A stretch of DNA of 64,000 nt from a virus. Taxonomy: Duplodnaviria > Caudoviricetes. The notes beneath the pieces were generated by a model. The model ran no database searches. It saw nothing but the letters and a program-made list of their open reading frames with translations, and was not told the origin of the DNA. This document shows, piece after piece, positions 14,167-64,000 of the stretch (within the stretch, counting starts at the first letter, position 1; every line of letters starts with the position of its first letter). Both the position numbers and the translations under genes were made by a program. The stretch lies in the IMG/VR virus record IMGVR_UViG_3300020577_005315, positions 1-64,000 of that record; one strand, written 5' to 3'.

Positions 14167-14197
14167 CTAAATAACAAGCACTCCGGTGTCATAATTA
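14167..14197 (+). promoter_or_regulatory. Putative phage promoter CTAAATA-N14-GTCATAATTA (copy 1)
   Basis: Identical boxes and spacing to 45937-45967; both copies head non-structural gene islands. Confidence 0.7.
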
Positions 14198-14254
14198 CAG
14201 GATGGAGGGGATCGTCCCTTTCGTCCTGTACCCGTCTACACGCCCGGAGTACGC

Positions 14255-18217: not shown

Positions 18218-18245
18218 CCCGTGGAGTACTACTGAGGATCCGTGA

Positions 18246-18827
18246 ATGAGCACACCCAAGCCGGTTAACGCGTGTCGAGACGTGTGTCGGCAGGCGTTCG
18301 GCGTTGTCACTGTATTCTGTAAGCGTGGGGGAGGTAAGTCCGGCGTGACTTCGCATCTCCTCCACACGCGCCCGTCGGGCGAGAAGCGTACCCGCTTTAA
18401 CCCTCGCGAGGTCGACACGAGCGGTCTCGTCGATGACGACGGGCCGTTGTGGGGTTGGCCTAGCGGCGTCATTGACGTAGCGTCACTACGTTATGCGGGC
18501 TCCGAGTTCGCCCGACGGGTACGGCCGGACCTCGCGGTCCACGACGCTGACACGGCGCTACAGATCGCACGCGCCATGTCACCCCAGGAGCTCAATTCGC
18601 ACCTCTCGTGGTGTCACGACATCGACGCGGAGTGGGATGAGGCCGTCGTCCAGGCGTACCTCGACCGCCCCGACGTCGGGGCGTCCATCGACCGTGTGTG
18701 GGCCGAGAACGTCCGACTCTGGGACGAGGAGTCGGCGTACCTCGCGACGTTACCCGACCAGGAGGGGCCGGTGTGGTACGGCTTACCGGACTACCAAGAA
18801 CTGTTCGTTCCGGACGACGAGGGTTAA
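18246..18827 (+). CDS. DEEG-tag family protein (array 1, #2)
   Basis: Ends VWYGLPDYQELFVPDDEG*. Confidence 0.7.
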   Translation: MSTPKPVNACRDVCRQAFGVVTVFCKRGGGKSGVTSHLLHTRPSGEKRTRFNPREVDTSGLVDDDGPLWGWPSGVIDVASLRYAGSEFARRVRPDLAVHDADTALQIARAMSPQELNSHLSWCHDIDAEWDEAVVQAYLDRPDVGASIDRVWAENVRLWDEESAYLATLPDQEGPVWYGLPDYQELFVPDDEG

Positions 18828-18842
18828 CTGTTGGAGGCCGAC

Positions 18843-19064
18843 ATGATCCGTGCGTTGTTACGAGCGTCTCAAGACGTCAATGTCTATCTTGAGCGTGGCA
18901 TCAGGAGTATCCGGCTGAACGTCGGATCGCGCCTGAAGCGTCACGTCCTGGCCAAAGACGAAAGGTACCGCCTCGTCGGTAAGAAGCCGCTGAACGAGGA
19001 ACAGTTTATCACGTCGCTCCTCCCCAACGGGTTGTCACTGTTCGTCCCGGACGAGGAGGGCTAA
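18843..19064 (+). CDS. DEEG-tag family protein (array 1, #3)
   Basis: GGAGG SD and ATG 18843; ends LLPNGLSLFVPDEEG*. Confidence 0.7.
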   Translation: MIRALLRASQDVNVYLERGIRSIRLNVGSRLKRHVLAKDERYRLVGKKPLNEEQFITSLLPNGLSLFVPDEEG

Positions 19065-19086
19065 CCACGAGGTGAGGAGTACTACC

Positions 19087-19512
19087 ATGAGCACGCCGAT
19101 CGCCATGCACCGCGAACACCACGTGACGGTGTTCTTCCCGCGTACTGACACCGCCGACCGAACGTCCGGTGCGGTGGTGTCACGCGCGGTCAGCACCGCA
19201 ACGCACCCGACCGTGATCCGCGACCCGCCGCCTGTGCCGGCCGAGGTGAAGGCGGCGGTCAGGAATTCGCCGGCTTTACAGCTGCTGAGACACGAGCTCC
19301 GCAAGAAAAGTTCGCGCCGCAGACTCCCGAGAACCCGTGGTACGTTAGGCGTCTTGACGCCTAACGAAATCGCCCACGCCCGAACGCTGCTCGACCACGA
19401 TAGGGCGCACACGCTGCACCTGCACACGAAGCAGCTGTCTCAGGACTTCAAGGTCCTGTGGCAGAATCTGCCTAGGGCGCACTACCTGTTCGTCCCGGAC
19501 GAGGAAGGTTGA
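19087..19512 (+). CDS. DEEG-tag family protein (array 1, #4)
   Basis: GAGGAG SD and ATG 19087; ends LWQNLPRAHYLFVPDEEG*. Confidence 0.7.
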   Translation: MSTPIAMHREHHVTVFFPRTDTADRTSGAVVSRAVSTATHPTVIRDPPPVPAEVKAAVRNSPALQLLRHELRKKSSRRRLPRTRGTLGVLTPNEIAHARTLLDHDRAHTLHLHTKQLSQDFKVLWQNLPRAHYLFVPDEEG

Positions 19513-19537
19513 CCGACACTATTAACAGGGGAAAATT

Positions 19538-19870
19538 GTGCCTAACAACGCGCTCGAGGCCCTGAGAGCCCGGTGGAGGGGGTTTGTGACGGTCGCTCGT
19601 GGCGAGTTCATCGGTGGCGGACCCGAACCGACGTTTTTCATCGACGACAAACGTCGGCTCGAACAGATCCACGACCAGGCTAAGCGAATCGACGTCGGTA
19701 AGCCCGCGCTACGAGACTTCGACGGCAACTCACGTCTTGCCAACGTCTGGGCACGGCTGCCGGGTGGGTCGATTTTGTACGCACACATCAACCGCACCAG
19801 CGGTAAATTGCCGCGTGACGTGACGCGGCAGATGTGGCGCGAGCTGTTCGTGTTCGACGAAGAAGGCTGA
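19538..19870 (+). CDS. DEEG-tag family protein (array 1, #5)
   Basis: Contains VWARLP and ends MWRELFVFDEEG*. Confidence 0.7.
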   Translation: MPNNALEALRARWRGFVTVARGEFIGGGPEPTFFIDDKRRLEQIHDQAKRIDVGKPALRDFDGNSRLANVWARLPGGSILYAHINRTSGKLPRDVTRQMWRELFVFDEEG

Positions 19871-19899
19871 TCCTGTTCCTCTGACTTGAAAGGAAGACG

Positions 19900-20097
19900 A
19901 TGTCCAACGTCCGCCGCGTCCGCCTCGCGAAGTTCCTCAACCCGACGGCCGCCGACCTCAAGGTCGACCCGAAGCAGTACTGCCTGGGGCACCTGGACTA
20001 CTTGATCTGGCGCAAGGAGGCCAAGCTGGTCCACCGGGGCGCCAGGCAGTACGTGGAGTACAACTGCGTCCGGGAGCCCATCCGGACGCACCACTGA
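19900..20097 (+). CDS. Small hypothetical protein
   Basis: AAGGA SD; high GC3; followed by a terminator. Confidence 0.55.
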   Translation: MSNVRRVRLAKFLNPTAADLKVDPKQYCLGHLDYLIWRKEAKLVHRGARQYVEYNCVREPIRTHH

Positions 20098-20103
20098 CCG
20101 TCG

Positions 20104-20138
20104 AGCCCGGGGTGACCCCCGGGCTTTTTCTTAGCCGT
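20104..20138 (+). terminator. Rho-independent terminator
   Basis: GC-rich AGCCCGGGG/CCCCGGGCT stem, TTTT tract, then CTTAGCCGT. Confidence 0.85.
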
Positions 20139-20217
20139 CGGAAATCCTAAACACAACTAGTCAAGTTTAATGGGCATCAGTTAATCTACCCGACAACCAC
20201 CATTGGGGACACGAAAG

Positions 20218-22962
20218 ATGCCGTTCACTGTGACGTCCGCACTCACCGCCGTCGACCGCGCCGCCCAAATGGACCGGACGTTGCTCCTGCCCCTGCGGCC
20301 GGTGATCGTCGGCCCGCGGGCCGCACTGCACCGATACAGCGTCTCCAGCGAGAAGGCGTCTCTCGGGACGTACGACAAGCTCGCCGACCACACGTACACG
20401 TTTCCCAACCGGTCGTCCACGTCCGTCATCGACCAAACGACCGTACGTGTGTTTGGCGACCAGGTGTGGCTGAACTTCTTCAACAAGTACACCGGGGCTA
20501 ACGGCTCCTGCCAGTGTTCGTCCTCGTTCCCCAACCGGGTTCGAGCGGCCAACTACACGTTCAAGACAGGCAACGGCTCGACGCGCACTTCGGACTTTGG
20601 TGACCGCGACGTCAAGGTGGGCGACCTCGTCCAGATTCAGTACGGTGCGTCAATCCTGAACACGTCCGTCACCGGGTTCGTGGGGGAGACGGTTGCCGCT
20701 GTTACCAGTTCCGCCACCGCCGACTCGAACAACAAGGCGACGCAGACCAGTTCGGCGACCATCTCGCAGGTCTCTTCGACCCCGATCAACGAAGTCGTGG
20801 CCATCGCCACCGGCACGTCGTACGAGTCGTCCGCTGACGGTTATCTGACGCGCACTTACACGATCACCGTCACCCAGGCTTCGACCGGTAGCGACGCTAC
20901 CACGGCCCGACTCTCGGTGGTCAGCTCTGACGGGTTGGACAACGTCGCCAGCGTCACCCCTGCTGCCTTCGCCTCACCGACTACGATCGGTACGAAGGGG
21001 TTGACCGTTACGTTTTCTCTGGATAGCGGTCACGCTGGGGCGAGCGGTTCTGGTATCGACCAGGACGACTTCGTCGTGGGTCAGCAGTGGACGGTGACGG
21101 TGTCGCAGGCGTTTACCGCCCCGACCGCCACCGCCGCCGGCACCTACACTGGCACCAAGGACGACACGTACGTCGTAACCGTGACCCGTGGTGGGGCTTA
21201 TACCGACACCACGCCCCCGCAGATCACGGTGTCTACGACCAACGGCTCTGATCGATCTGGTCCGACCAGTATCACCGCCGCGTCGACCGCCTTCGCCGTC
21301 GGGTCGTATGGCGTGACAGTCGCTCTCAACCAGACCAAGCTACGTAAGGGCGACATTTACTACATCCCCGTTACGGCCGCCAGCCAGGGTGCGCTGAAGA
21401 CTCTCACCCTCAAGGACGACGTTCCGGCCGACATGCGTGGTGTTGAGGTTAATCTGCGGCTGTTTGCCCTCCGTAACGCGTTCGAGGTCGCTAAGCACAC
21501 CACGACCTGGTCGACGACCTCAACTGGTATCACCTTGAAGGCTGGTATCACCGTCACCGACTCTGAGTTTACGACGGGCGGGGTGCTGACGGCGTTGGTC
21601 CTCGAAACCGGGACGCTGTACGTTGATTATCGTGAGTGGATTACGACCAACACGGGGACTGTGGTGGAACTGACCAAGCGGGCAGACATTGTCGCCGCGT
21701 TGGGTCCGGTCGACCGCGCTAACCCGTTGGCCCAGGGTGTTGACTTCGCGTTGCAGAACACCGCGGGTGAGCTCGACGGCGACCCGTCACGCCCGGCCTC
21801 GACCACGACTGATATCGTGTACGCCGTCTCCGTGGGCGACCCGACGGTTACGTCCAACTGGACCAACGCGCTGCGTGGCCTGGAGGAGAACGATTACGCC
21901 TACACGATCGTTCCCCTGTCGTCCGACTCCGCCGTGCAGTCTGCTGTCGTCAGTCACGTGCTCGCCCAGAGTGCTGCGGACGTTGGATTCTACCGCCGGT
22001 GCTTCCTGGCTGGTCAGCTCACGGAGACGATCGGCGTCGTTACGGCCAGTACGACCTCCGACGCGTCGGCGGCGACTGCCACCGCCTCGGGAACGACCCT
22101 TACGACGTCGGCGAATTCGCAGCTCATCACGAACGGCGTGCGGGCCGGTGACGTGGTTCGTATCAACTTCGCTACTGACGCTGACGGCGTTGTGACTTAC
22201 TCAACGTTCGTCGTCGACTCGGTCCTGTCCCAGACGTCGCTGACGCTGACCACGTCCCCTGGCACGCTGTCTCCGGCCCGACAGTTCGAGGTGTGGCGGA
22301 CCCTTACGCCGACCGAGTTGGTGACCCAGCAGACCGCCCTGGCCGCGTCCCACGCTACGGCCGTCGGTCGCGTGTGTTACTTCCTCCCGGACCGGGCCAG
22401 CTTCGGCGGCACGAGCTACGACGGGTACTTCCTGGCGGCTGCGGTCGCCGGGCTCTCCGCCAGTGTTCCTAGCCATCAGAACTTGCGGAACGTCGGGGTG
22501 GTCGGGTTCGACGACCTGTCCCGCGTCGCCAAGCTGTTCAACGGCGGCCAGCAGAAGGACCTGAAGAACGGCGGGGTGTTCGTCGCCTCCCAGACGTCCG
22601 ACGGCACCGTCTACCTGCGTGGTACGGTCACCACCGACCTGACGCCGATCGGTCTGCGCGAAGAGATGATGGTCCGCAACCTGGACATGATCCGGAAGGC
22701 GATCCAGACGGCCTGGGCCCCGTACGTCGGCACCGGCAACTCGACCGGCAACCTGCGCCCGTCGCTCGAGGCCGCCCTCGCCCAGCTCGAAGCCAAGATG
22801 CGGAACACCGCCATCGCCGCGCTCGGTACGCCGGTCGGCTCGCTCCAGCTGACTGACCTGTCAACCGTCCCTGGCAGCCCGGATCAGGTCAGTGTTACAA
22901 TCGCCGTCAACGGTCAGGCTACCCCTCTGAACCTGATTCAACTCGTGCTAGACGCAGCGTAA
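20218..22962 (+). CDS. Contractile tail sheath protein
   Basis: About 914 aa, Thr-rich with inserted beta domains; C-terminal sheath-like 'YTIVPLS', 'YFLAAAVAGL', 'REEMMVRNLD'; precedes the tube-like gene. Confidence 0.75.
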   Translation: MPFTVTSALTAVDRAAQMDRTLLLPLRPVIVGPRAALHRYSVSSEKASLGTYDKLADHTYTFPNRSSTSVIDQTTVRVFGDQVWLNFFNKYTGANGSCQCSSSFPNRVRAANYTFKTGNGSTRTSDFGDRDVKVGDLVQIQYGASILNTSVTGFVGETVAAVTSSATADSNNKATQTSSATISQVSSTPINEVVAIATGTSYESSADGYLTRTYTITVTQASTGSDATTARLSVVSSDGLDNVASVTPAAFASPTTIGTKGLTVTFSLDSGHAGASGSGIDQDDFVVGQQWTVTVSQAFTAPTATAAGTYTGTKDDTYVVTVTRGGAYTDTTPPQITVSTTNGSDRSGPTSITAASTAFAVGSYGVTVALNQTKLRKGDIYYIPVTAASQGALKTLTLKDDVPADMRGVEVNLRLFALRNAFEVAKHTTTWSTTSTGITLKAGITVTDSEFTTGGVLTALVLETGTLYVDYREWITTNTGTVVELTKRADIVAALGPVDRANPLAQGVDFALQNTAGELDGDPSRPASTTTDIVYAVSVGDPTVTSNWTNALRGLEENDYAYTIVPLSSDSAVQSAVVSHVLAQSAADVGFYRRCFLAGQLTETIGVVTASTTSDASAATATASGTTLTTSANSQLITNGVRAGDVVRINFATDADGVVTYSTFVVDSVLSQTSLTLTTSPGTLSPARQFEVWRTLTPTELVTQQTALAASHATAVGRVCYFLPDRASFGGTSYDGYFLAAAVAGLSASVPSHQNLRNVGVVGFDDLSRVAKLFNGGQQKDLKNGGVFVASQTSDGTVYLRGTVTTDLTPIGLREEMMVRNLDMIRKAIQTAWAPYVGTGNSTGNLRPSLEAALAQLEAKMRNTAIAALGTPVGSLQLTDLSTVPGSPDQVSVTIAVNGQATPLNLIQLVLDAA

Positions 22963-22980
22963 GCGTCACGGAGACTACAG

Positions 22981-23583
22981 ATGAGTGACCTCTTCGGTCG
23001 TCAGAGCCAGGTTCTTGCGGGCGGGTTGAGCTCTGACGCCATGTTCATGTCCTGGCCCGCGCTCGCCAACGTGGCGGGTGCGGGGCTCGGGATGATGGTG
23101 CAGCAGCTCAGCGTCGACTATCGGCAGCCGATCCGTCGGGTGTACGAGATCGGGCCGGGTATCGTCCCTGGTATGCCTAACGCGGCGGTCTGCGACATTC
23201 CCGGCGCTCCGCTTCTACCCGGCGTTTGTGCGGCGCGGCAACAGCCGACGTACTACATCATCGGGCGTCCCGAGGGTCGTCTGCAGTTCGGCCGGTTCGT
23301 CGGCCCGCAGGTGCTCGGTACGTGCTTCTATCGTGCGTACGGTAGCGCGTGTGGTAGTAACGTCATCACCTTGTCCGGTCGGGCCGGGTGTAACGCCAGT
23401 AACGCTGCCAACAACCCGCTGATGACCTGGACGATGAACGGCGTCGTACTGGACCAGACCAGTATGCGCGTCGGCGGCCAGGAGATGGTGATCGAGGAGG
23501 ATATCGGCGCCATGTTCGCCGGGCTCGACATCAGGGTCAACGGCGCTGACGTGATCTGCGACGCGCAGCTGAACGGCTTCTAA
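22981..23583 (+). CDS. Tail tube protein
   Basis: 200 aa after the sheath gene; 'VQQLSVDYRQPIRRVYEIG' tube-like motif. Confidence 0.7.
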   Translation: MSDLFGRQSQVLAGGLSSDAMFMSWPALANVAGAGLGMMVQQLSVDYRQPIRRVYEIGPGIVPGMPNAAVCDIPGAPLLPGVCAARQQPTYYIIGRPEGRLQFGRFVGPQVLGTCFYRAYGSACGSNVITLSGRAGCNASNAANNPLMTWTMNGVVLDQTSMRVGGQEMVIEEDIGAMFAGLDIRVNGADVICDAQLNGF

Positions 23584-23608
23584 GCCGCAGTAGTAAAGGA
23601 CTGCCAAC

Positions 23609-26359
23609 GTGGACGACCTGGACCGCCGCGGGGTAGCGACCTCGCGGCGTTTAGAGCAGCAGCAGGCTGGGTCGCCGAATCCTGGAACCGCGTCTAGCGA
23701 TTCGTACATGAGCGGGTGGAGGGGTCAACTCGACCCCTCTGTCGCTACGCCCCAGACCGAAAGCGGCGTGATCATCGACTACGTCCCCGGCACGTACGCT
23801 TACCGCGTATCCGCTGGGGATCGTAGTACGTTGTGGTGCGGAGTCGGCGGCAGCGAGGGCGGGTTCGGCGCTACGGGCGTTAAACCTGTTACCACGTACC
23901 GTATCGGCGACAACATCAAGTTCGTCCGCGACCCGCAGACTCGTGGCGTCGGCATGATCATTGGCGTCGAGGGTTCCTGGATGAACCCCGACCCGGTCCA
24001 ACGGCCAGCCGACGGCGTCTGGCCGTTCGTTCGTAGCGGCCACGTCGATGCCGCCCACCAGTTCCCGATCATCTCGTCCCTAGACCTCGGTTCACACGGC
24101 ACGATCCCACTCGGCCACGTCGACATGGTGGATTTCTCCGCCGGCCGACCCATCGATTCGTGCTCGGGTCAGTGGGGCGTCATGGCGGAAACGGGCGTCG
24201 GCGTCATGGCCGACTCCGAACACGCATACATCCGCGCCAGTGAAGCAGCCGGTGTGTTCTGCTTCTACGGCGACGAGCTCACGCGTGTTGCGGGCCGTAA
24301 CTTCCAGACGTTCACGTCCCTGGAGGACACCGAGCAGTTAGATGACGAGGGCGAACTCTACGGGTACTCGGCGAAGACGGTCTACCCATTCGAGAACTAC
24401 GGTTTGTTCCGGTACAACCAGGTCACTCCGGTTGCGACAGCCCCGGCCGTAGAAAACGCCGGCTTGGCGCCGGGACAAGGTGTGGCGTTCAACAACCCCA
24501 TCTTCGTCCAAAACGGCTCCGGGTACGCGGTCCGCGAGCCAGAACAGTACAAGCAGATCACGGCCGCCCGCATCCACGACTGGTCCGGCTATCTGGGGCA
24601 GGGCGGCAAGACGCTTATCAGCGCCCCCGTACAACTGGATTGGGCGTACCCCGACATCGCCCCATTGACGGGTACGACGTCGGCCCGTTTGGTCTCGAGT
24701 GACAACGCGCCATTAGGCCGCGTTCTCGTCGACAACCTCGGGGCCGATCCCGAAACTACCGACTTCCGCGTTAACCCTAACCAGCGCAACGGCACACCAC
24801 TGCCGGGCGTGTTCACGGATAATAAGGAGCTCACCGGTGGCTGGACCGTCAGTTCGCAACGACACATTATCTTCAGTAAGCGTAGTGTTGCGCCCAAACC
24901 GCAGCCCGTACTACGTCCTGAAGACCCCTACGGGGATAACGCTGGTACCGGTTATTCTCCGAGCGGCATCCAGTTAGGGGATGAAACGAATCCGTCGTCC
25001 ATAACTCACAAGGTTAAGGGCGACTTCACGTACACGTTGGGTGCGCGGCACAGACAGTTACTACTGCCTGACGTCGTTGCCTACCTATTCAACTGGACCG
25101 CCCTTCACCCCTTCATCTACCACGCCCGAGACTGGACTGTGGCCGAGGAGGGCGCAGCGGGGTCCGACCTGGTCAACCAACTCAAGTACGACCTCCGTAC
25201 GCTGAAGACCGACCAGGATCTACCACTGCCAACGCCGAAGTACATGGACATCGATCACCGGTTCGGTAAGGTGCCGGTGTATCAGAACGAGTCGATTTTC
25301 GGTCTGCTGGACGACGGTAGTATCATCATCGAAGACGGCTTCGGGTCGTCCATCAAGATGGTCGGGGGGAACATCGAACTCCACGCCGCCGGAGACATTC
25401 GCTTCTTCTGCGGTAAAAACCTGGTCACTTGGGCCGGACACGATGTGTCCATGAAGGCCCACAACTCCGTAGATTTCGCCGCCGTCAACGGCACGCTTCG
25501 CACGTCCGCCCACCAGGACAGCCAGCACCTGGCCGGCAACTCCGGGTGCGGCGGGTTCGTGTTCGAGTCGAAAGCGATGGCTCCGTCGTTGGGCTATACA
25601 CGCGCCGGCGAGAAAGCCGTTGGGTCTGGATTCACGGTCCTCTGTCCAGACTCGGCCATTCAACTCATGGGGCAGGACACGATCGTCTCGTTGGCGCGTC
25701 CGTCCCTGGAGGGCCGTATCGTACTAGACGCGGGTGACGACAATGACGTCTACATTCAGTGCGGTAAACTGATCGACCGAGTCGCCACCTCTCACGTACA
25801 GCTGATCAACGGTGCCGTCAACGAGCACACGGGCACGTACTCACTATTCGGAACAACGGTCACGGTCAACGGCGCTGGTTTCGCTACGACGGGGTGGGGC
25901 ATTCAGGCCCCTGCCGCGAACATCACCGACCGCCTCACGTACTTGACGACGCAGTTCCGCCCGGCTGTACTCAACACCGTGTTCCAGCCGCCGGGGTGGG
26001 GTCATATCGAGTTCAGTCACCGTCTGGACTCCGAGTACTTGACGTCGAACTTCGTGTTCTGGAAGCCCAAGTGGCACTACCTACACTCCGGTACGGGTGA
26101 TAACGCGTTGCCCAAGTGGCAGGAGAACCGCATTTTCGGCCTGAGGAGTCACACCCTTACAGCCCCCCACCCCGGGCCGCGGTGGTTTGCTTCGCAAAAC
26201 CTAGCCTACGCCCAACCGACTCTGGTAGATACTACGAACGGGTGGATCGCTGTACCACGTAATGGTACGAGTCGGACCGCGTATGAAAATTACACACCCC
26301 CAACCGTGTCGTACACGTCCCTAAATACGGCGTACCCGGTGATCGTCGCTGCACGGTGA
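23609..26359 (+). CDS. VgrG/gp5-like baseplate spike protein
   Basis: N-terminal OB-like region; beta-helix-like 'DDGSIIIEDGFGSSIKMVGGNIELHAAGDIRFFCGKN' repeats. Confidence 0.55.
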   Translation: MDDLDRRGVATSRRLEQQQAGSPNPGTASSDSYMSGWRGQLDPSVATPQTESGVIIDYVPGTYAYRVSAGDRSTLWCGVGGSEGGFGATGVKPVTTYRIGDNIKFVRDPQTRGVGMIIGVEGSWMNPDPVQRPADGVWPFVRSGHVDAAHQFPIISSLDLGSHGTIPLGHVDMVDFSAGRPIDSCSGQWGVMAETGVGVMADSEHAYIRASEAAGVFCFYGDELTRVAGRNFQTFTSLEDTEQLDDEGELYGYSAKTVYPFENYGLFRYNQVTPVATAPAVENAGLAPGQGVAFNNPIFVQNGSGYAVREPEQYKQITAARIHDWSGYLGQGGKTLISAPVQLDWAYPDIAPLTGTTSARLVSSDNAPLGRVLVDNLGADPETTDFRVNPNQRNGTPLPGVFTDNKELTGGWTVSSQRHIIFSKRSVAPKPQPVLRPEDPYGDNAGTGYSPSGIQLGDETNPSSITHKVKGDFTYTLGARHRQLLLPDVVAYLFNWTALHPFIYHARDWTVAEEGAAGSDLVNQLKYDLRTLKTDQDLPLPTPKYMDIDHRFGKVPVYQNESIFGLLDDGSIIIEDGFGSSIKMVGGNIELHAAGDIRFFCGKNLVTWAGHDVSMKAHNSVDFAAVNGTLRTSAHQDSQHLAGNSGCGGFVFESKAMAPSLGYTRAGEKAVGSGFTVLCPDSAIQLMGQDTIVSLARPSLEGRIVLDAGDDNDVYIQCGKLIDRVATSHVQLINGAVNEHTGTYSLFGTTVTVNGAGFATTGWGIQAPAANITDRLTYLTTQFRPAVLNTVFQPPGWGHIEFSHRLDSEYLTSNFVFWKPKWHYLHSGTGDNALPKWQENRIFGLRSHTLTAPHPGPRWFASQNLAYAQPTLVDTTNGWIAVPRNGTSRTAYENYTPPTVSYTSLNTAYPVIVAAR

Positions 26360-26991
26360 CAGTAAGGAAGTTTATGTCCGAAGAGATTGAAGTCGACCTG
26401 GTCGCCACTGGTGGCCGGCTGAAGTTCTCCGAGCAGCCGCCCAAGCTGAAGGCAGAACCCGAGTCGGTCAAACGGGCTACGCCGGAGCCCGTCGCACAAT
26501 GTAAGCATTGCGGGCAGGACCCAAAGTCGGATCCGGTCACAATCGACTCACAGGACGTGATCGATTTCCAGCGGTCGGTGTGGAGCGGGAAGAAGTTCAC
26601 CAAGGAGTACAAGCTCTTTGGCGAGACCGCGGCCGTCACTTTCCGCGAACTGACCGTCAAGCAGCGTCAGGCGATCAAGAACAAGCTGATGGCCGAGGCG
26701 GCTACTTACGCTGGGACTCCAGCTGACGCGTTGGTCGTGTACGAGCGGGCCAACCTGTTCTGCCTGGCGTTGTCAGTCGCGGAGCTGCGATTGGGTGAAA
26801 CGATCACTCCGTTCTCGTCTGTAGAGAACGTGGACGAGGCGTTGGACAAGTTTACCAACGTCTGCGTCAGTGACCTGATCTACCAAGCCGTCTGGGACGT
26901 CTTCGCCAAGTTCCAGGACCTGCGGGACGTGATCGTCAAGAAGGCAGCCGACCCGTCTTTCTACACAGCAGTCAAGCCAGCTGGACAGTAA
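26356..26991 (+). CDS. Putative tail assembly chaperone
   Basis: Upstream of the tape measure gene; 'VTFRELT' motif; helical. Confidence 0.5.
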   Translation: MTVRKFMSEEIEVDLVATGGRLKFSEQPPKLKAEPESVKRATPEPVAQCKHCGQDPKSDPVTIDSQDVIDFQRSVWSGKKFTKEYKLFGETAAVTFRELTVKQRQAIKNKLMAEAATYAGTPADALVVYERANLFCLALSVAELRLGETITPFSSVENVDEALDKFTNVCVSDLIYQAVWDVFAKFQDLRDVIVKKAADPSFYTAVKPAGQ

Positions 26992-27050
26992 GCCGCCTGG
27001 CTGTCCAGGGGGAGCCGACTCTGCAGCCGGCCCCCGACTGTCCTGACTGC

Positions 27051-27389
27051 GTGAGAGACCAGCGACTGCTTTGGGCGTCTTGGGTCGGGTCGACGATGGA
27101 CCTGATAGCGACGCTGCGTTCACAGGCCAACTGTCCGCACGTCGACCCCAAGTCTGCCATTAAGATGCTCAAGCGTGCGAACAAGCTCGAGATGTACGGC
27201 AACGTCGACAACAGGGCCGACGACCAAGCGGCGGCCAAGGCGTGGGAGAAGCGGTTCGGTATGGCCCCCGACTCTGCCGAAGCGCAAGAAGCCGCCTACA
27301 AGGCCGTCGAAGCCATGCGTAGGAAAGAGCTCGAGGCGAAAGCCAAGCAGGAGCAGCGTCAGGCCCGTCACGGTAGGCGGAAGCGCTAA
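27051..27389 (+). CDS. Putative second chaperone ORF (possibly a -1 frameshift extension)
   Basis: In the -1 frame relative to the upstream ORF, open across its stop; weak start signals. Confidence 0.4.
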   Translation: MRDQRLLWASWVGSTMDLIATLRSQANCPHVDPKSAIKMLKRANKLEMYGNVDNRADDQAAAKAWEKRFGMAPDSAEAQEAAYKAVEAMRRKELEAKAKQEQRQARHGRRKR

Positions 27390-27425
27390 GACGTGGTAGA
27401 CTGAGCCGCCTAACCCGGAGAACAG

Positions 27426-29690
27426 ATGCCTGACGACTTTGGGTCATACGCGGCGCAGTACGGTCTAAACACCTCAATCTACGCCCCGCCTCCGCCCCCG
27501 CGGTCGCCGGGGTTCTTCGGCTTCAACGCCCAGCAGGGTGGGCCGATGGGTGGGGCCATCCAATCAATGGTTCCAATGATTGGGGAGATGTTCCGCAGTC
27601 AGTTGGGTGGATACGGGTTCAACTTCGGGGCCGACCAGAACATCGCCAGCACGCAGCTGGCACGGGACTTCCTACGTCAGATGCGTGACGCCCGCAAGCT
27701 GGGCGCTCAGGCTGACAGATCCCAGGTAGAAGACCTCGTCCGCAGTATGGCCGTCGCGATCGGCCACCAGCCGCTGGCCAATCAGAAAACACCCGGCGGC
27801 CGGGTGATGTTCCAGCCGGACGTGGAACGGGCCATCTCGCAGTTCAGCGGCGACGCTTCCGGCCTGTTGCCGATCTTTGCGTCCATGTTCCCCGACACCG
27901 TCGACAGGATCCTCCCGCGGGGGTCCATGTCCGTCGCGGCCGGGTCGTTCACCAACGCTGGTCGGTTCGTCATCGACCCCCTGACGGGTAAGTCTGCTGC
28001 CGAATCTGCTGACTTCGCCGCCCGCGTCCTGACACCGCTCATGGACAAGGGGCCGGAGTACACGTCTGGTCTGCGGGCGGGCCGACTCGGATCTCTGTAC
28101 GAGACTTTGGTTCAGCGCGGCGACATCAGCAGTGGTCGCGACCTGGCCGAGCAGGTCGACATGCGGGAGAAGACGGGCGGGTTGTTCGGCGTCGGCATGG
28201 ACCGGAGGAAGGCGTCGGACGTCCAGGCGGATCGGGTGGGCCGTCGGCTGCAGGAGTACAGCAAGGTCATCGCGGCGATCAACGACATCTTCGCCGCCAA
28301 CGGCCGGCCTGACGCGCCGATGAGCGAGCTGATCCAATCGCTCGAAACGATGACCCAGGGCGGCATGTCTACGTACGACCCGCGTAAGCTGGCCGACATC
28401 GCCCGTACCATACAAGGAGCGTCGATCGAGTCCGGAATGGGTCTGGCCGGCATTACGCGTGTCGCTGCGGCTACAGGTGGGATGCTGGGGGAGTTTGGCG
28501 GTCACCGTGGTCTGGCGGCCCCGATCGCGCTCCAAGCGATTAGCGCAGGCAATGTGGCGGCGGATATGGGGTTTGGCCGTCCCAGCCCTGAAGGTATGTC
28601 CCGTGAGGCGTTCGTCGCCGCCGTAGCCCGCGACCGTGCGGCGTTCGCCGGCAGCGACATGGGTAACCGCATCGGCTCGATCCTGAACCTGGCCGTAGGC
28701 GCCCAACCGGGGTCGCGTCTGGCGAAGGTCGCTGCTGCCCTAGCCGCCGGTAACACTGGGGCTGAAGGGTTCGACATTCGTACGGCGCAGCTGCACGACA
28801 TCACCAAACTGGCCAGTGAGTCCGGGATCAGCGAATTCGCAACTATCACGCAGACCCAGAACACCCTGGCCAACCAGGGCGCGTTGGTGCGTAACGGCGA
28901 CGTGGTCAAGAAGCTCGGGCCGAAGATTCAGCAGTCCGAAGTCGAGCAGCTGTTCCTGAACATTTACGGGTCGCGGTTGGCGACGATGGGCGTCGACCCG
29001 AGCAAGTTCTTCGCGACCATGTACAGGGTGAGTCAGCGCGGCGACATCACCGGCGACGCCCAGTTCGGTCAGGAAATCGCCAAGGAGCTCGGTTTGGGTC
29101 AGGCGGCCGGGTCGGAGTTCGGAGCGTTTGTTGGTAACGTGGGGCAGATGCGTGGTACGAGCGGCTACAACCTGGCCCGACTCATTAATCCGGACGTGCG
29201 TGACGCGATGGGTGTAGCCGGCGGGCGGTTCGAGGCCGAAGGTCGTCGTCAGGCTCGACTGACTCACCTGGCCCGTGGTGGGTTCTTGTCACAGTTCTCA
29301 CAGAGTTTCCGCCAACTGGGTGAGCAGGGTAAGGGGTCGTGGTTAAGTCTGGCGTTAGGGACACTGGGGTTCGTGCCCGACGAATTGGCCGGTGTGTCGC
29401 CGACGAAGGATAAGATGGCTGCTCTAGGTGGAGCGGGGGCTATGGCGGAGCTGTTGACGCCGGCCGCCTCCCTTGAGGAACAGCTAAAGAACTCACACGG
29501 CATCCTCGGTAAGTCACTGACAACCTGGCGCAACCGTCCACTGGGAGTAGCCGACACGCCCGGCAACACCCCGGCCAACGCCCCGCAGTCGGGTATGCCG
29601 TCCAAGATCGAAATGAGTGGTATCCTGACCGTTGACATCGTAAAGGGTCAAGGCGCTCTGAGTGGCGAAGGCGCAGTTCCTAAGAAGTAA
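27426..29690 (+). CDS. Putative tape measure protein
   Basis: 754 aa Ala/Gly/Met-rich and helical; follows the chaperone-like genes. Confidence 0.6.
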   Translation: MPDDFGSYAAQYGLNTSIYAPPPPPRSPGFFGFNAQQGGPMGGAIQSMVPMIGEMFRSQLGGYGFNFGADQNIASTQLARDFLRQMRDARKLGAQADRSQVEDLVRSMAVAIGHQPLANQKTPGGRVMFQPDVERAISQFSGDASGLLPIFASMFPDTVDRILPRGSMSVAAGSFTNAGRFVIDPLTGKSAAESADFAARVLTPLMDKGPEYTSGLRAGRLGSLYETLVQRGDISSGRDLAEQVDMREKTGGLFGVGMDRRKASDVQADRVGRRLQEYSKVIAAINDIFAANGRPDAPMSELIQSLETMTQGGMSTYDPRKLADIARTIQGASIESGMGLAGITRVAAATGGMLGEFGGHRGLAAPIALQAISAGNVAADMGFGRPSPEGMSREAFVAAVARDRAAFAGSDMGNRIGSILNLAVGAQPGSRLAKVAAALAAGNTGAEGFDIRTAQLHDITKLASESGISEFATITQTQNTLANQGALVRNGDVVKKLGPKIQQSEVEQLFLNIYGSRLATMGVDPSKFFATMYRVSQRGDITGDAQFGQEIAKELGLGQAAGSEFGAFVGNVGQMRGTSGYNLARLINPDVRDAMGVAGGRFEAEGRRQARLTHLARGGFLSQFSQSFRQLGEQGKGSWLSLALGTLGFVPDELAGVSPTKDKMAALGGAGAMAELLTPAASLEEQLKNSHGILGKSLTTWRNRPLGVADTPGNTPANAPQSGMPSKIEMSGILTVDIVKGQGALSGEGAVPKK

Positions 29691-51730: not shown

Positions 51731-51757
51731 GAGACCCGACGTAAGTTTGGAGTCGAC

Positions 51758-52568
<811 letters not shown>

Positions 52569-57790: not shown

Positions 57791-60700
57791 ATGGTTAAGC
57801 ACAACAGCAAGCTGCCCACGACCTGTGTGAAGCGCGACGGCGCCACCGTGCCTTTCGACGGCGAGAAGATCGTCAAGGCAATCCGTCGCTGCTTCGACAA
57901 CGTCTGGGCGGACGAACGTACTCTCGCGGACAAGAGCGTCGACGACGTCGTCGGCAACATCTACGGGCGGGTGCTCAATGTGATCGCGGCCCAGAAGGCC
58001 GACCAAGTCAGCGTGGAAGACGTCCAACGGTTCGTCCTCCACGTCCTCTGGTCGGACAAGCTGTACGCCGCGGCCGAGCACTACCAGAACTACCGAGAGG
58101 ACCGGCGTAAGGCCCGGTTCAACACGGCCGTGACCCCCGACCGCCTGGAAACGGTCAAGGCGGACCAGAAGCACTTCCCGACGGACCTGCAGTACTACCA
58201 GTTCATCGGAAAGTTCTCGCGCTGGCGGGACGCCGACCGCCGCCGGGAGACGTGGAAGGAGACGGTCACGGAACGGGTGATGCCCTGGTTCAAGGGCTTG
58301 CCCGGTGCCCAGCTCGAAGACGCCGAGTGGAGCATGCTGCAGGACAGCATGTACAACCTCGAGTCGTCCCCGGCCATGCGGGTCGTGCAGATGGCCGGGC
58401 CGGCGCTGCAGAGGGAGCCGCTGGGATGCTACAACTGTCTGGGCGTCGAGACGGCGTTTATCACCCGTAATGGTGTGAAGACGTTTCGAGACTTCAAAGA
58501 CGGCGACACTACCGTGGTGCTTACGCACACCGGCTCCTGGAAGAACGCTGTCGTTCGAAACTACGGCGTCCAGAAGCTCTACACACACCACATCAATCGC
58601 TCACGCACCAAAGTGACTGTTCGCGCCACGGCCAACCACCGCTGGGTGCTGAGTGACGGTAGTGTTCAAACCGGGCTCAAGGCGGGCGATAAGCTCCACT
58701 TGCCGCCGTGTCCGTCGATCAACTGGAACTACGACGCTGCAGAACCGCTGGAGAAGCTCTACTGGGCGTACGGATACGTGTACGGCGACGGTACCCGCGT
58801 CAAGAAGGACGGTGAGTACACGTACTCGATGGTTCGTCTCTGTAAGAACGACCGTGGGTACCTTGAGCGATTCGAAGAGCTCGGTTTCGGCTCCAGTAAT
58901 CCGTTGTCGTGTAAGGGCGACCCGATCGTCTACACTGGTAGCTACCTCAAGACTCTCCCCGAGTTGACCGACGACTTGGGCGTGATCCGGGCTTTCGTAC
59001 GCGGCTACCTGGACGCGGACGGCGGTAGTGGTCACCCCCAGTCGCCGAACGACTTCTCCTGCATTCAGGTGACCGGCGAACAGTCTATCGAGTTCGTTCG
59101 ACGCGTGTTTCCCGTCGCGGGCTACTACATCACGCGCGAAGAGGTTGTCGACAAGGACACCAATTTCGGTCCGCGCTCGGCTCTGACAATTCGGTTCGGA
59201 CTGACGAACAACTTCGGCGTTGCGACGAACCGGTTCTACGGGTTGACGTCGAACGTCGAAGACGACGGTAGTCCGCCGGAAGAAGTGTGGTGTCTCGAGG
59301 TCGAAGACGACCACTCGTTCGTGCTCCCGTCAGGTGTCGTCACTGGAAACTGCGCTTATGCACCGATTGTCGACAGAACGTCATTCTCTGAACTCCTGTA
59401 CGTACTCATGCAGGGGACGGGGATGGGGTTCTCAGTCGAAAACGACTACATCGACGAGCTGCCTCGCATCAAGAAGCAGCGTAACACCCCTCGGGAACGG
59501 ATCGTCGTCCCGGACAGTACTGAGGGGTGGTGCAAGTCGTACGACCGCTACCTGGAGCTCCTCTGGGACGGGCGTGAGGCGGACATCGACGTCTCGTTCG
59601 TCCGCAAGGCGGGCAGCCGCCTGAAAACTAAAGGCGGGAAAGCATCCGGTCCGGGGCCTTTCCTGGAGCTCTGCTCGTTCGCCAGCAATCTGTTCAAGTC
59701 GCGTCAGGGTAAGTACCTGACCGACCTGGATTGTCACGACCTGGCCTGCATGACGGGTCGGATTGTTCAGGTGGGCGGCGTCCGTCGGGCGGCAGAGATC
59801 TCCTTGTCCGACCTGAACTCGCGGGCGATGCGGGACGCCAAGTCTGGCGCGTGGTGGACCAACAACCCGCAGCGGTCGATGGCGAACAACTCGGCCGTCT
59901 ACGAGGAGAAGCCGGACTCTACGACGTTCATGGAGGAGTGGCTGGCGCTCACCAAGTCCCGCAGCGGCGAGCGCGGTATCTTCAACCGGCAGGCCGCGCA
60001 GCTACACAAGCCTAAGCGTCGTAAGATGGTACGATTTGGCGTTAACCCGTGCGCGGAAATATTACTTTCGCCTCATGGTTTGTGTAATCTCAGTATGTGT
60101 ATCGCACGTCAGAACGATACCGCCGAATCGCTACGACGTAAGGTCCGTGCCGCCACATACTTCGGCAAGCTGCAGTCGCTGTGTACGAACTTCAATTACG
60201 TCCGGTCCGACTGGAAGCGTAACGCCGAAGAGGAGCGTCTCCTGGGTGTGGACATCACGGGTCAGGCCGACTGCCCCTTACTGAGGTTCAACTCTCAGAC
60301 CGATCGGGCCGCTCTCCTCCGGACGCTCCAGGAGGAGGTCCTGTCAGTCGACCGGATGCTGGCCGAACGCTGGGGCATCAACGTCTCCGCGGCAGCTACG
60401 ACCGTAAAGCCGGGCGGTGACTCTGCGGTGTTCTTCGACTGCTCTTCGGGCGTGAGCCCGCGTTTCAGCCGGCACCAGATCCGGTGGGTGCGAGAGTCGA
60501 AGGACAGTCCCGTGGCCCGCTTCCTGATCGACAGCGGCGTTCCGCACGCCCCGGCCCCCGAGGCCCCGGATCGCCTACTGGTGTTCGGGTTCCCGAAGGC
60601 TGCCCCGACCGGCTGTACGCTCCGTGACGACATGACCGTGATCGACCAACTCGAGAACTGGCTGACGTGGAAGGAGAACTGGGCCGAACACTCCGTGTCC

Positions 60701-60970
60701 GCCACCATCTACGTCGGCGACGACGAGTGGCTGACGGCCGGGAATTGGGTCTACAACCATTTCGACCAGATCACGGGCCTGTCGTTCCTTCCGCGGGACA
60801 ACGGCACCTACACGTACGCCCCGAACGAGGAGATCGACGAGGCGAAGTACGGCGAGATGATGAACTCCTTCCCTGACCTCAACTGGGCGAAGCTGTCCGC
60901 CTACGAGGAGGAGGACATGACCGAGGCCGCTATCACGTTCGCCTGCGTGGGCGGCGGCTGCGACAACTAA
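57791..60970 (+). CDS. nrdJ: Class II (adenosylcobalamin-dependent) ribonucleotide reductase with ATP-cone and intein
   Basis: ATP-cone 'VKRDG..VPFDGEKI', 'YNC', 'GTGMGFS', 'GGVRRAAEI', 'NPCAEI', 'TVKPGG', C-terminal 'ACVGGGC'. Confidence 0.92.
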   Translation: MVKHNSKLPTTCVKRDGATVPFDGEKIVKAIRRCFDNVWADERTLADKSVDDVVGNIYGRVLNVIAAQKADQVSVEDVQRFVLHVLWSDKLYAAAEHYQNYREDRRKARFNTAVTPDRLETVKADQKHFPTDLQYYQFIGKFSRWRDADRRRETWKETVTERVMPWFKGLPGAQLEDAEWSMLQDSMYNLESSPAMRVVQMAGPALQREPLGCYNCLGVETAFITRNGVKTFRDFKDGDTTVVLTHTGSWKNAVVRNYGVQKLYTHHINRSRTKVTVRATANHRWVLSDGSVQTGLKAGDKLHLPPCPSINWNYDAAEPLEKLYWAYGYVYGDGTRVKKDGEYTYSMVRLCKNDRGYLERFEELGFGSSNPLSCKGDPIVYTGSYLKTLPELTDDLGVIRAFVRGYLDADGGSGHPQSPNDFSCIQVTGEQSIEFVRRVFPVAGYYITREEVVDKDTNFGPRSALTIRFGLTNNFGVATNRFYGLTSNVEDDGSPPEEVWCLEVEDDHSFVLPSGVVTGNCAYAPIVDRTSFSELLYVLMQGTGMGFSVENDYIDELPRIKKQRNTPRERIVVPDSTEGWCKSYDRYLELLWDGREADIDVSFVRKAGSRLKTKGGKASGPGPFLELCSFASNLFKSRQGKYLTDLDCHDLACMTGRIVQVGGVRRAAEISLSDLNSRAMRDAKSGAWWTNNPQRSMANNSAVYEEKPDSTTFMEEWLALTKSRSGERGIFNRQAAQLHKPKRRKMVRFGVNPCAEILLSPHGLCNLSMCIARQNDTAESLRRKVRAATYFGKLQSLCTNFNYVRSDWKRNAEEERLLGVDITGQADCPLLRFNSQTDRAALLRTLQEEVLSVDRMLAERWGINVSAAATTVKPGGDSAVFFDCSSGVSPRFSRHQIRWVRESKDSPVARFLIDSGVPHAPAPEAPDRLLVFGFPKAAPTGCTLRDDMTVIDQLENWLTWKENWAEHSVSATIYVGDDEWLTAGNWVYNHFDQITGLSFLPRDNGTYTYAPNEEIDEAKYGEMMNSFPDLNWAKLSAYEEEDMTEAAITFACVGGGCDN
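58436..59350 (+). mobile_element. Intein with LAGLIDADG homing endonuclease (305 aa)
   Basis: Begins CLGVET after YN; block B 'ATANHRW'; 'GYVYGDG' and 'GYLDADG'; ends 'VWCLEV..HSF..GVVTGN' before the +1 Cys. Confidence 0.92.
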
Positions 60971-62165: not shown

Positions 62166-62171
62166 CGCATG

Positions 62172-62196
62172 ACCCCGGGGCGACCCGGGGTTTCTT
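62172..62196 (+). terminator. Rho-independent terminator
   Basis: ACCCCGGG-GCGA-CCCGGGGT-TTCTT (GNRA loop). Confidence 0.75.
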
Positions 62197-62211
62197 CGTT
62201 TAGGGGGTACG

Positions 62212-62430
62212 ATGCAGATACAAAGGCACCTCCTGTGGGTGTCGGGACGTGGTGACGATGATAAGCTGATAATCGGGATGAATGTTTTAGTGTTTGGTGG
62301 AAAGTACAGCGAAGTCGTAATCGACGCAGTGAAGTTCACGTACGAGGAGGTCACAACACTCGACGCCGACTGGTTTATCGATCACCTGCCGGAGTTCGAC
62401 GGACTGTTCGTCTTTGACGAAGAGGGCTAA
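62212..62430 (+). CDS. DEEG-tag family protein (array 2, #1)
   Basis: Ends FIDHLPEFDGLFVFDEEG*. Confidence 0.7.
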   Translation: MQIQRHLLWVSGRGDDDKLIIGMNVLVFGGKYSEVVIDAVKFTYEEVTTLDADWFIDHLPEFDGLFVFDEEG

Positions 62431-62432
62431 CG

Positions 62433-62645
62433 ATGACTCGAACCAGCGAGCTGTCTCGGTGTCTCACGTATGACCACGAGTACTACTTCACAGTGATGAA
62501 TCAATACGACTGGCACACTTGGTCTAGGATCACCGTGTCAGTCGACAGCCCGGAGTTGAACGGACACTGGATCCGGCACCTGACGGCGATTTGGTTGAAT
62601 CTTCCCAGGAACGACGAACTCTACGCCTACGACGAGGAGGGGTGA
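62433..62645 (+). CDS. DEEG-tag family protein (array 2, #2)
   Basis: Ends IWLNLPRNDELYAYDEEG*. Confidence 0.7.
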   Translation: MTRTSELSRCLTYDHEYYFTVMNQYDWHTWSRITVSVDSPELNGHWIRHLTAIWLNLPRNDELYAYDEEG

Positions 62646-62647
62646 GC

Positions 62648-62878
62648 GTGTACTGCCGATCGAGGAGTCATAGCGATAGAACGGAGCTACTGTACAGATA
62701 CCTACACAGTCTGACGGTGGCGGTAGACACCCGCTGTGGTAGAGACGTCGGCGTCGTCGTGTACGCGTTCAGTGGACGTGACCGCCGCGACGACACGCCC
62801 GAGACACAACAACTGACAGTACTGTGGCGCGCTCTGCCCAGGGGAAAGAAGCTGTTCACCCCGGACGAGGAGGGTTAA
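62648..62878 (+). CDS. DEEG-tag family protein (array 2, #3)
   Basis: GTG 7 nt after GAGGAGG; ends LWRALPRGKKLFTPDEEG*. Confidence 0.7.
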   Translation: MYCRSRSHSDRTELLYRYLHSLTVAVDTRCGRDVGVVVYAFSGRDRRDDTPETQQLTVLWRALPRGKKLFTPDEEG

Positions 62879-62880
62879 CC

Positions 62881-63075
62881 GTGTCGGTACGTCTCACTGG
62901 AATGTTCCGCTACTACGGCACGACGTTGGTCGCCGTCGATAACGTCGTCAAGTGCGACGCCAACTTCATCGTATCACACGGTGGACCCGATGCGGCACAG
63001 GATGTAGAGTTCGATCGCGTATGGAGACTTTTGCCACATCGGGGAAACCTGTTCACCCCGGACGAGGAGGGCTGA
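62881..63075 (+). CDS. DEEG-tag family protein (array 2, #4)
   Basis: Ends VWRLLPHRGNLFTPDEEG*. Confidence 0.7.
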   Translation: MSVRLTGMFRYYGTTLVAVDNVVKCDANFIVSHGGPDAAQDVEFDRVWRLLPHRGNLFTPDEEG

Positions 63076-63077
63076 CC

Positions 63078-63308
63078 GTGTCGACGTGTCTCATCAACAT
63101 GTATCGCTATTACGGCACGACGTCTTTCGTAAGAATGTATCGCTATTACCACATGGCGTCAGTCGCCGTCGATAACAACGTCACGTGCGACATCGACCTC
63201 ATCACATCACACAGCGGATGCGTTGTGGCGTATGATACAAAGTTCGAACGTGTGTGGAGTAGTCTGCCACAGATGGAAGACCTGTTCACTCTGGACGAGG
63301 AGGGCTGA
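63078..63308 (+). CDS. DEEG-tag family protein (array 2, #5)
   Basis: Ends VWSSLPQMEDLFTLDEEG*. Confidence 0.7.
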   Translation: MSTCLINMYRYYGTTSFVRMYRYYHMASVAVDNNVTCDIDLITSHSGCVVAYDTKFERVWSSLPQMEDLFTLDEEG

Positions 63309-63310
63309 CC

Positions 63311-63508
63311 GTGTCGACGTGTTTCATCAACATGTATCGCTATTACGGCACGCCGTCGGTCGCTGTCGACAGTTACGACAAGAATGACGCCGGCGTCATC
63401 ACGTCACACAGTGGATACAGCTGCTCGGAGCGGGATACAGAATTCAACCGTGTGTGGAGACTTTTGCCGCAGATGAGTGACCTGTATGAACTGGACGAGG
63501 AGGGGTGA
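63311..63508 (+). CDS. DEEG-tag family protein (array 2, #6)
   Basis: Ends VWRLLPQMSDLYELDEEG*. Confidence 0.7.
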   Translation: MSTCFINMYRYYGTPSVAVDSYDKNDAGVITSHSGYSCSERDTEFNRVWRLLPQMSDLYELDEEG

Positions 63509-63510
63509 TC

Positions 63511-63768
63511 GTGTGCGGAAGCGTCGTATTGTCGGTGTTGAGAGAGGTTTGGGGCGGTGGGTGGTTTGGCATCCAACTGTGCATCGGGGACCACCCTCGG
63601 AGCGAAGTCTGGTCGATGCCGGCGATCAATTACGTAGACTTCCGACACACCCTGCCGGACTCGAGGTTGTTTCGTGAAGAAAGCGACGCCCGGCGCGGAA
63701 CCTTCGTGAGGTTGGTCTTCGCGCTACCGAACCGGCGGGAGCTATACGTCTTCGACGAGGAGGGCTGA
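63511..63768 (+). CDS. DEEG-tag family protein (array 2, #7)
   Basis: Ends LVFALPNRRELYVFDEEG*. Confidence 0.7.
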   Translation: MCGSVVLSVLREVWGGGWFGIQLCIGDHPRSEVWSMPAINYVDFRHTLPDSRLFREESDARRGTFVRLVFALPNRRELYVFDEEG

Positions 63769-63769
63769 C

Positions 63770-63988
63770 GTGCGTCACGTGTACAGGATTCAAAGGGGGT
63801 ACCCGGAGCAGTACAACGCGTTAGCTGTGTACACCACAACGCCAACGCCTAGTGTGGTGGAGGCCGCGGATCTGGCCGTACCGCACGTTCTCGGGTTGAG
63901 AACCGAGCGAATTAACGAAGTGTTGATGAAAATCTGGTGGAATCTACCCTGTACCGAAGAACTATACACCTACGACGAGGAGGGATGA
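63770..63988 (+). CDS. DEEG-tag family protein (array 2, #8)
   Basis: Ends IWWNLPCTEELYTYDEEG*; the next GTG at 63991 suggests the array continues past the window. Confidence 0.7.
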   Translation: MRHVYRIQRGYPEQYNALAVYTTTPTPSVVEAADLAVPHVLGLRTERINEVLMKIWWNLPCTEELYTYDEEG

Positions 63989-64000
63989 CGGTGAGTCGAG

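Follow-up and report, generated by a model that had tools for sequence, protein, structure and literature searches.

Tail codons in a tandem array of small phage genes appear to double as the Shine-Dalgarno sequence of the next gene

How can a phage express a long row of very small genes that leaves almost no room between one stop codon and the next start? The question is raised by a stretch of 64,000 nt (hereafter the window), which is the first 64 kb of the 93.5-kb IMG/VR contig IMGVR_UViG_3300020577_005315 of a Caudoviricetes phage (completeness estimated by CheckV at 47%). Nearly all genes of this contig are on the plus strand, which also carries the two gene arrays located below, and its GC content is 62%. 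Sixteen genes of the phage end in L-(F/Y)-x-x-D-(E/D/G)-E-G-stop, five of them in a first group (array 1) and eleven, named B1 to B11, in a second group (array 2). A first-pass annotation of the window, made from the letters alone, had proposed that the last codons of this acidic tail (the tag) double as the Shine-Dalgarno (SD) sequence of the following gene, and that the shared tag DNA allows the genes to be shuffled as cassettes. From the geometry of the junctions, the strength of the SD match, the codon bias and the conservation of the tail as a peptide, we conclude that array 2 is probably a self-coupling family of duplicated, fast-diverging small genes, in which the tail codons act a second time as the SD of the next gene. 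The shuffling of cassettes we consider unlikely.

Array 2 extends from 62212 to 64685, its last 685 nt lying beyond the window. It begins after a terminator-like hairpin (62171-62192) continued by the T-rich tail TCTTCGTTTA (whole element, 62171-62201), which stands between an upstream 151-aa gene and B1. The genes inside the window are B1 (62212-62430; 72 aa; tail GLFVFDEEG), B2 (62433-62645; 70 aa; ELYAYDEEG; gene call in contig L013), B3 (62648-62878; 76 aa; KLFTPDEEG), B4 (62881-63075; 64 aa; NLFTPDEEG), B5 (63078-63308; 76 aa; DLFTLDEEG), B6 (63311-63508; 65 aa; DLYELDEEG), B7 (63511-63768; 85 aa; ELYVFDEEG), B8 (63770-63988; 72 aa; ELYTYDEEG) and the first bases of B9 (63991-64000), which runs off the window. 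B9, ending in DGEG, B10 and B11 reach genome position 64685. B4, B5 and B6 are recent paralogs of one another, and B3 is a distant paralog of these three.

All ten internal junctions of array 2 have the same construction, namely D-(E/G)-E-G, a stop codon, 1-2 nt and a GTG or ATG start. An intergenic space of 1-2 nt was thus found at 10/10 of these junctions, as compared to 6/86 of the other gene pairs (rough gene calls of our own). In the window part of the array, eight tags end with GAC-GA(G/A)-GAG-GGN-stop and are followed by the next start 1-2 nt further on; the tag of B1 reads GAA-GAG-GGC-TAA, then CG and ATG. The junction pattern described by the first-pass annotation, GACGARGAGGGNTRANNRTG, was borne out, as it occurs seven times in the window versus 0.00 expected (100 shuffles), the B7-B8 junction being outside the pattern because of its 1-nt gap. 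The claimed position of GAGGAGG, the end of which precedes the next start by 6-7 nt, was likewise verified at 10/10 array-2 junctions. The string GACGAGGAGGGCTGACCGTGTCGACGTGT, reported to be identical at 63061 and 63294, is real too, and belongs to an exact 30-nt repeat (about 65 nt at 97% identity) that exists because B4, B5 and B6 are recent paralogs. Copy 1 of this repeat (63060-63089) covers the end of the B4 tag, the stop and the B5 start, and copy 2 (63293-63322) covers the end of the B5 tag, the stop and the B6 start.

These tags are also strong SD sequences. According to our rough gene calls, many genes of the phage are preceded by SD-like motifs, whose duplex energies against ACCUCCUUA typically amount to about -5 to -9 kcal/mol. 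With up to -12.3 kcal/mol, the array-2 tags include the strongest SD of the genome, and the values lie between -11.5 and -12.3 kcal/mol at nine of the ten array-2 junctions, the tenth being B1-B2 (-6.3 kcal/mol). The choice of glutamate codons agrees with such a role. GAG and GAA respectively account for 78% and 22% of the glutamate codons genome-wide, and GAG was found at 18/19 positions of the coupled tags (B1-B10, each directly followed by a start) versus 6/11 positions of the uncoupled ones (A1-A5 of array 1, and B11, none of them next to a start; Fisher p = 0.016). We extended the comparison to 37 tags from four contigs, this genome and the sister contigs L027, L031 and L035 presented below, and obtained GAG:GAA counts of 44:2 in coupled tags versus 10:5 in uncoupled tags (nominal p = 0.008), together with a mean anti-SD pairing of -11.1 versus -8.3 kcal/mol (Mann-Whitney p = 0.007). 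The gaps at the 17 further coupled junctions of L027, L031 and L035 range from -8 to +4 nt. Where the residue at position -3 varies (G, A, L or R in place of E), the GGAGGGG core of the last two codons is retained.

Co-directional genes with near-zero gaps, and an SD located inside the upstream gene, are two criteria of translationally coupled pairs, and both were found at the junctions. Overlapping gene pairs of most phyla as a rule have an SD within the 3' end of the upstream gene, coupling requires overlaps or very short distances, and the Planctomycetes, the suspected host group of this phage, have been placed with the organisms showing the E. coli-like pattern (PMC6728339, PMC10666635). 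We propose that array 2 consists of tandemly duplicated, rapidly diverging small phage genes, the products of which keep their tail by selection at the protein level. GAG-GAG-GGN contains GGAGG and the genes are packed stop to start (+1/+2 nt; -1, +2 and +4 in the sister contigs), so each tail would serve as the SD of the next gene. No sigma-70-like promoter was found anywhere in array 2, nor any terminator or stem-loop inside it, and in keeping with the lack of internal promoter, terminator and spacer the eleven genes would most likely be carried on one mRNA. The ribosome would load at B1, which has its own SD (GGGGG), and the later genes would be coupled, either by termination and SD-assisted re-initiation, or by initiation once the upstream ribosome has opened the SD. 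The predicted accessibility of the ribosome-binding sites, at the 92nd percentile for B1 and at background for the internal sites, hints at such an entry at B1 followed by serial coupling. Synonymous choice would be tuned to GAG over GAA where the tag acts as an SD, and new copies would arise by ordinary tandem duplication, each keeping a working junction. The arrangement, probably an ordinary translational coupling, is tidy and has good support from the codons, and it is not surprising.

The tail itself is conserved as a peptide. The alignment of the sixteen genes shows a common tail of about 20 residues, W-x-x-L-P-x4-L-(F/Y)-x-x-D-E-E-G, with invariant L, P, L, D, E and G; allowing for longer spacers, it can be written as W-x-x-L-P-x(4-14)-(E/D)-L-(F/Y)-x-x-D-E-E-G. 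Outside this tail, kinship is detectable only among B2-B6 (BLASTP E values of 1e-10 to 4e-12 among B4-B6, weaker for B3 and B2). The invariant Leu, Pro and Gly residues are specified by four to six different codons each (both TTR and CTN for Leu), and the pairwise codon identity is at or below that expected from codon usage. Between paralogs, the ratio of nonsynonymous to synonymous substitutions (dN/dS) is 0.02-0.56 in the tail, whereas the clearest pairs show 0.6-1.2 in their N-terminal parts, and the tail dS is equal to or higher than the N-terminal dS. DEEG is also kept by the genes with no start behind the tag, those of array 1 and B11, which use GAA freely. Since the peptide is kept where no coupling exists, selection at the protein level takes precedence, the SD role being an addition to it. 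The units are thus genuine genes that evolve fast, and purifying selection acts on their tail, on which the SD role seems to be layered. Two of these genes have internal repeats. B7 possesses a degenerate second tail, LPDSRLFREES (63640-63690), located 26 residues before the real one, which resembles a partial tail duplication, and B5 (63099-63160) possesses a 12-residue internal duplication relative to B4 and B6, MYRYYGTTSFVR followed by MYRYYHMAS.

Array 1 (18005-19870) comprises A1 (18005-18217), A2 (18246-18827), A3 (18843-19064), A4 (19087-19512) and A5 (19538-19870). Its genes have the same tail family as array 2, but they are separated by spacers of 15-29 nt and each has its own SD; in the case of A3 and A4 a GGAGG or GAGGAG sits in the spacer, nearer to the start than the tag. 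GAA is also more frequent in the array-1 tags. Owing to these spacers, and to the own SDs of A3 and A4, the tag is plausible as an SD in array 2 only. The claim that each cassette carries the translation signal of the gene that follows was consequently kept for array 2, for which the geometry, the SD use and the codon contrast speak, and given up for array 1. The sequence of about 28 bp said to be shared within array 1, CTGTTCGTYCCGGACGASGARGGYTRAC, was recovered as three exact matches (18801, 19038 and 19486) versus 0 expected. The N-terminal 165 residues of A2 found no homolog but themselves; therefore, there is no sign that the tail was grafted onto known domains. In A5 (19740-19870), 23 residues are inserted between the LP part and the LF part of the tail, which resembles a partial tail duplication.

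A strain variant of array 1 is represented by contigs L017 and L018, which match the window at 100% identity as far as 18878 and then continue with about 460 bp of unrelated sequence without tags. The left breakpoint (18878-18879) lies 36 nt into A3, and 51 nt past the A2 stop. At the right edge of the variant-specific segment (19868-19912), a similarity of about 75% to L017 resumes at or just past the A5 stop codon, and from 19912 on the identity is about 75% across large downstream genes. Overall, the window region 18878-29281 is about 75% identical to L017/L018 over more than 9 kb, including two proteins of about 915 aa. This region looks like an exchanged module, possibly made of tail-fibre or host-range genes.

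Several points weigh against the proposal that the tail codons serve as the SD of the next gene, and some of them would fit a passive by-product, i.e., an SD-like sequence arising because a genome that prefers GAG encodes an acidic Glu-Glu-Gly tail, tight spacing or SD-independent re-initiation being sufficient for expression. As GAG is the preferred glutamate codon anyway (78%), part of the SD match comes free, and two uncoupled tags of L027, each followed by a 40-nt gap, still read GAG-GAG-GGG. In published tests, the contribution of the SD to re-initiation varied from none to essential (PMC6728339). Regarding the statistics, the within-genome Fisher test gives p = 0.054 without the recent duplicates B5 and B6, and the tag copies are related paralogs and not independent, which leaves all these p-values nominal. 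As to the starts, GTG makes up eight of the ten downstream starts in array 2, and in B3 and B7 another in-frame GTG, which overlaps the stop, is available, so that single start assignments could be wrong. Lastly, we infer from the sequence that there is a single transcript, and that downstream translation is actually coupled to upstream translation. A passive by-product would however not account for the proportion of GAA, 33-45% in uncoupled versus 4-5% in coupled tags, nor for the SD-to-start spacing fixed at 6-7 nt in array 2, and SD motifs are found ahead of many other genes of the phage; we therefore hold this explanation to be quite improbable. As for the view that the units of about 230 bp are not genes, but a non-coding DNA or RNA repeat array with incidental open reading frames, it would agree with the lack of a homolog of known function, the lack of Pfam or PHROGS matches and the poor structure prediction. 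It is very hard to reconcile with the finding that every array-2 unit forms an open reading frame 64-85 codons long, with GC contents ranking third > first > second codon position (GC3 > GC1 > GC2) in the called frame only, with the many codons used for the conserved Leu, Pro and Gly and the tail dN/dS well below 1, and with the L035 lineage, which keeps the peptide with different DNA. We give it hardly any credence.

A different role for the tag is that of a recombination connector, the junction DNA being selected for homologous or microhomology recombination by which self-expressing cassettes are gained, lost and reordered. Tandem duplication has clearly occurred, judging from B4-B6, the 12-residue repeat of B5 and the blocks duplicated in L027. 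A connector would also be consistent with the 30-nt repeat (about 65 nt at 97%) flanking the tandem duplicates, the partial or duplicated tails of B7 and A5, the absence of the A3-A5 segment from L017/L018, with its right edge abutting the A5 stop, and the documented precedent of PeSL-mediated shuffling (PMC2839356). A candidate variant is contig L026 (SRR22317058), which lacks B5 and joins B4 directly to B6, the switch occurring inside the exact 30-nt repeat. However, L026 starts with Illumina adapter sequence and contains six G-to-A and one C-to-A changes within 13 nt (62780-62792), and its join is what a mis-join in a de Bruijn graph with k = 31 would give. The Logan contigs L024 and L025 (stopping at copy 1) and L015 (beginning at copy 2) break exactly at the 30-mer ends, which is how a graph with k = 31 should behave at a repeat of 30 nt. 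The loss of B5 is thus ambiguous, either a real deletion or an assembly mis-join. In array 1, the left breakpoint of the variant falls within the A3 coding sequence, outside the tag, and any mosaic joint that survived would be expected to have one of its edges at a gene end. Comparing the arrays between samples, as the first-pass annotation had suggested, revealed an identical gene order in five runs: in SRR31616005 array 2 is present in full, without differences in sequence or order, and the partial array-2 contigs of SRR10761721, SRR8942262, SRR8942265 and SRR32380193 are co-linear and 99.9-100% identical. Co-linear copies of L027 and of L031 were likewise seen in four runs each, though these between-sample copies are nearly clonal and give the order comparison little depth. 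Nor are the synonymous sites of the tag DNA homogenised, non-recent paralogs sharing exactly only about 11 nt, and the similarity of tag DNA beyond coding needs that would be expected of a PeSL-like connector was not seen, given the codon identities and dS values reported above. The proposal that a shared 3' microhomology shuffles the cassettes is not supported by these observations. Its integron-like version found no positive support: the tyrosine recombinase profile PF00589 matched nothing in the 93.5-kb contig (47% complete by CheckV), all 14/14 control genomes being positive, and no attC-like inverted repeats (≥ 12 nt within 120 nt) occur across 62150-64800. In sum, nothing establishes the tag as a site of crossover or the system as one specialised in shuffling, and we regard a recombination connector as unlikely. 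If true, a plug-and-play array, in which genes are added, deleted or reordered at tag junctions without breaking expression and which varies within populations, would have as its unit a stop, an SD for the next gene and a stretch of homology, on which the phage recombination machinery (an SbcCD-like pair is encoded downstream) could act, and L026 would be the first such variant; we consider such an array doubtful.

The ordinary coupling that we favour for array 2 can be set beside known systems. Like the coupled pairs with intragenic SD described by Huber et al. in 2019 (PMC6728339) and in a follow-up of 2023 (PMC10666635), the array-2 genes are co-directional, separated by distances comparable to the -4 to +2 nt of those pairs, provided with a strong SD 5-9 nt before the start and devoid of room for a promoter. 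Unlike in these pairs, the SD is spelled by the invariant peptide tag of a paralog family, in ten junctions in a row and in 27 over the four contigs, and the spacing is mostly +1/+2 instead of the usual -4/-1. The PeSL (promoter-early stem-loop) cassettes of T4-type phages (Arbiol et al. 2010; PMC2839356) similarly have a short repeat bounding small non-essential genes in a plastic region, a repeat that could in principle mediate shuffling. PeSLs are intergenic promoter-plus-terminator units for which recombination products have been shown, namely mini-circles and strain differences at PeSLs (PMC2839356), whereas the repeat studied here is coding sequence, without promoter or stem-loop, and with no confirmed recombinant joint inside it. 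Integron cassette arrays also are co-oriented rows of short, promoterless and mutually different genes; they differ from array 2, for which no IntI or attC was found and no site-specific recombination was seen, and the members of which are paralogs with a common tail and not unrelated captured genes. In the poxvirus K3L 'genomic accordion' and in the hyperplastic regions of T4, small accessory genes undergo tandem duplication and fast divergence, with a copy number that possibly varies between strains. The present family departs from these expansions by its at least 42 copies and its fixed C-terminal peptide.

One short sequence is thus presumably under two constraints, that of a conserved peptide end and that of the next gene's ribosome-binding site, both of which are visible in the codons. 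In this way a phage could express many tiny genes in a row although signals between them are lacking. Annotation and evolutionary analysis should take note as well, as C-terminal conservation beside a tightly packed downstream gene may operate partly at the RNA level, and the reverse can hold. An unrelated gene outside the window (82655-82680) ends in ...ASEEE and reads GAGGAGGAGTAATG at 82674; its GAGGAGGAG-TAATG junction provides the next gene with its SD as well as with an overlapping start, so that glutamate codons have this double function outside the tail family too.

The family extends beyond this contig. A profile of the tail was searched against 1.84 billion representative proteins, and yielded three new members which led to contigs L027, L031 and L035, bringing the family to at least 42 members. 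L027 (8.1 kb) contains 16-17 members (positions 1-4400), with LP-to-LF spacers of 4-14 residues or more, and shows multi-gene block duplications; L031 (13.9 kb) contains six members (2030-3090 and 10524-10757). In four members of L027 the motif is internal, the protein extending about 20 residues beyond it (LFVPD-L/V-DE...). L027 and L031 were found in the same sequencing runs as the phage and hold at least 22 further members, and the half of the phage genome that is missing may include them. L035 (ENA ERZ3756520; 923 bp; GC content 58%) belongs to a different lineage and contains four consecutive members (1-921), the tails of which keep W..LP...ELF and end in DEDDDD, DEEEYE, ESEDEDCG and EEDDE, with overlaps of -4 and -8 nt; in these members the peptide is retained although the DNA differs. 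Searched with strict DNA patterns for the tag, IMG/VR gave 0 matches, no other contig there carrying the tag, and the tag patterns applied to JGI metagenome and GTDB genome contigs met only one chance 18-codon open reading frame, three times.

A 216-aa gene located upstream of array 2, which has no Pfam match, had been a candidate for a tag-specific partner. It was dropped, its homologs in the three related contigs inspected being in the replication module without a tagged array. Because these homologs occur in related contigs without a tagged array, the arrays appear to be a lineage-specific expansion. The related phage contig L023 carries a gene (13970-14863) matching PF07596 (SBP_bac_10). 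This family, also called DUF1559, we take to be typical of Planctomycetes, and it would then fit a planctomycete host.

Scans of all members with Pfam and PHROGS, BLASTN of the region against GenBank phages and a search of the tail profile against PDB sequences gave no match, and the ESM Atlas returned no informative neighbour (model pLDDT, the predicted local distance difference test score, of 0.33). AlphaFold2 modelled B4, using the 16-member alignment, with a mean pLDDT of 54.6; only the tail was moderately confident (pLDDT of about 67-74), as a short helix over the FDRVWRL stretch followed by an extended acidic end. The T4 internal proteins have an N-terminal capsid-targeting sequence, and encapsulins recognise C-terminal cargo-loading peptides. 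As in these address systems, many otherwise unrelated small proteins share one short conserved terminal peptide, and by this analogy our guess is that the tail might have a common docking or address function.

Finally, some other genes deserve mention. Downstream of array 2 (genome positions 65806-69999) are an HldE-like sugar kinase/cytidylyltransferase fusion and an SbcD/SbcC-like (Mre11/Rad50-type) nuclease pair. Within the window, a gene at 51731-52303 has about 25 consecutive Asp/Glu residues at its end (…DDDDDDDDDDDDEDDEEDDEE). The ribonucleotide reductase gene at 57791-60970 (1059 aa, with an ATP-cone match in the contig annotation) appears to carry an intein, whose signs, read by eye, are a Cys after NC, the LAGLIDADG-like blocks YGDG and LDADGG, and the end ...VVTGNC.

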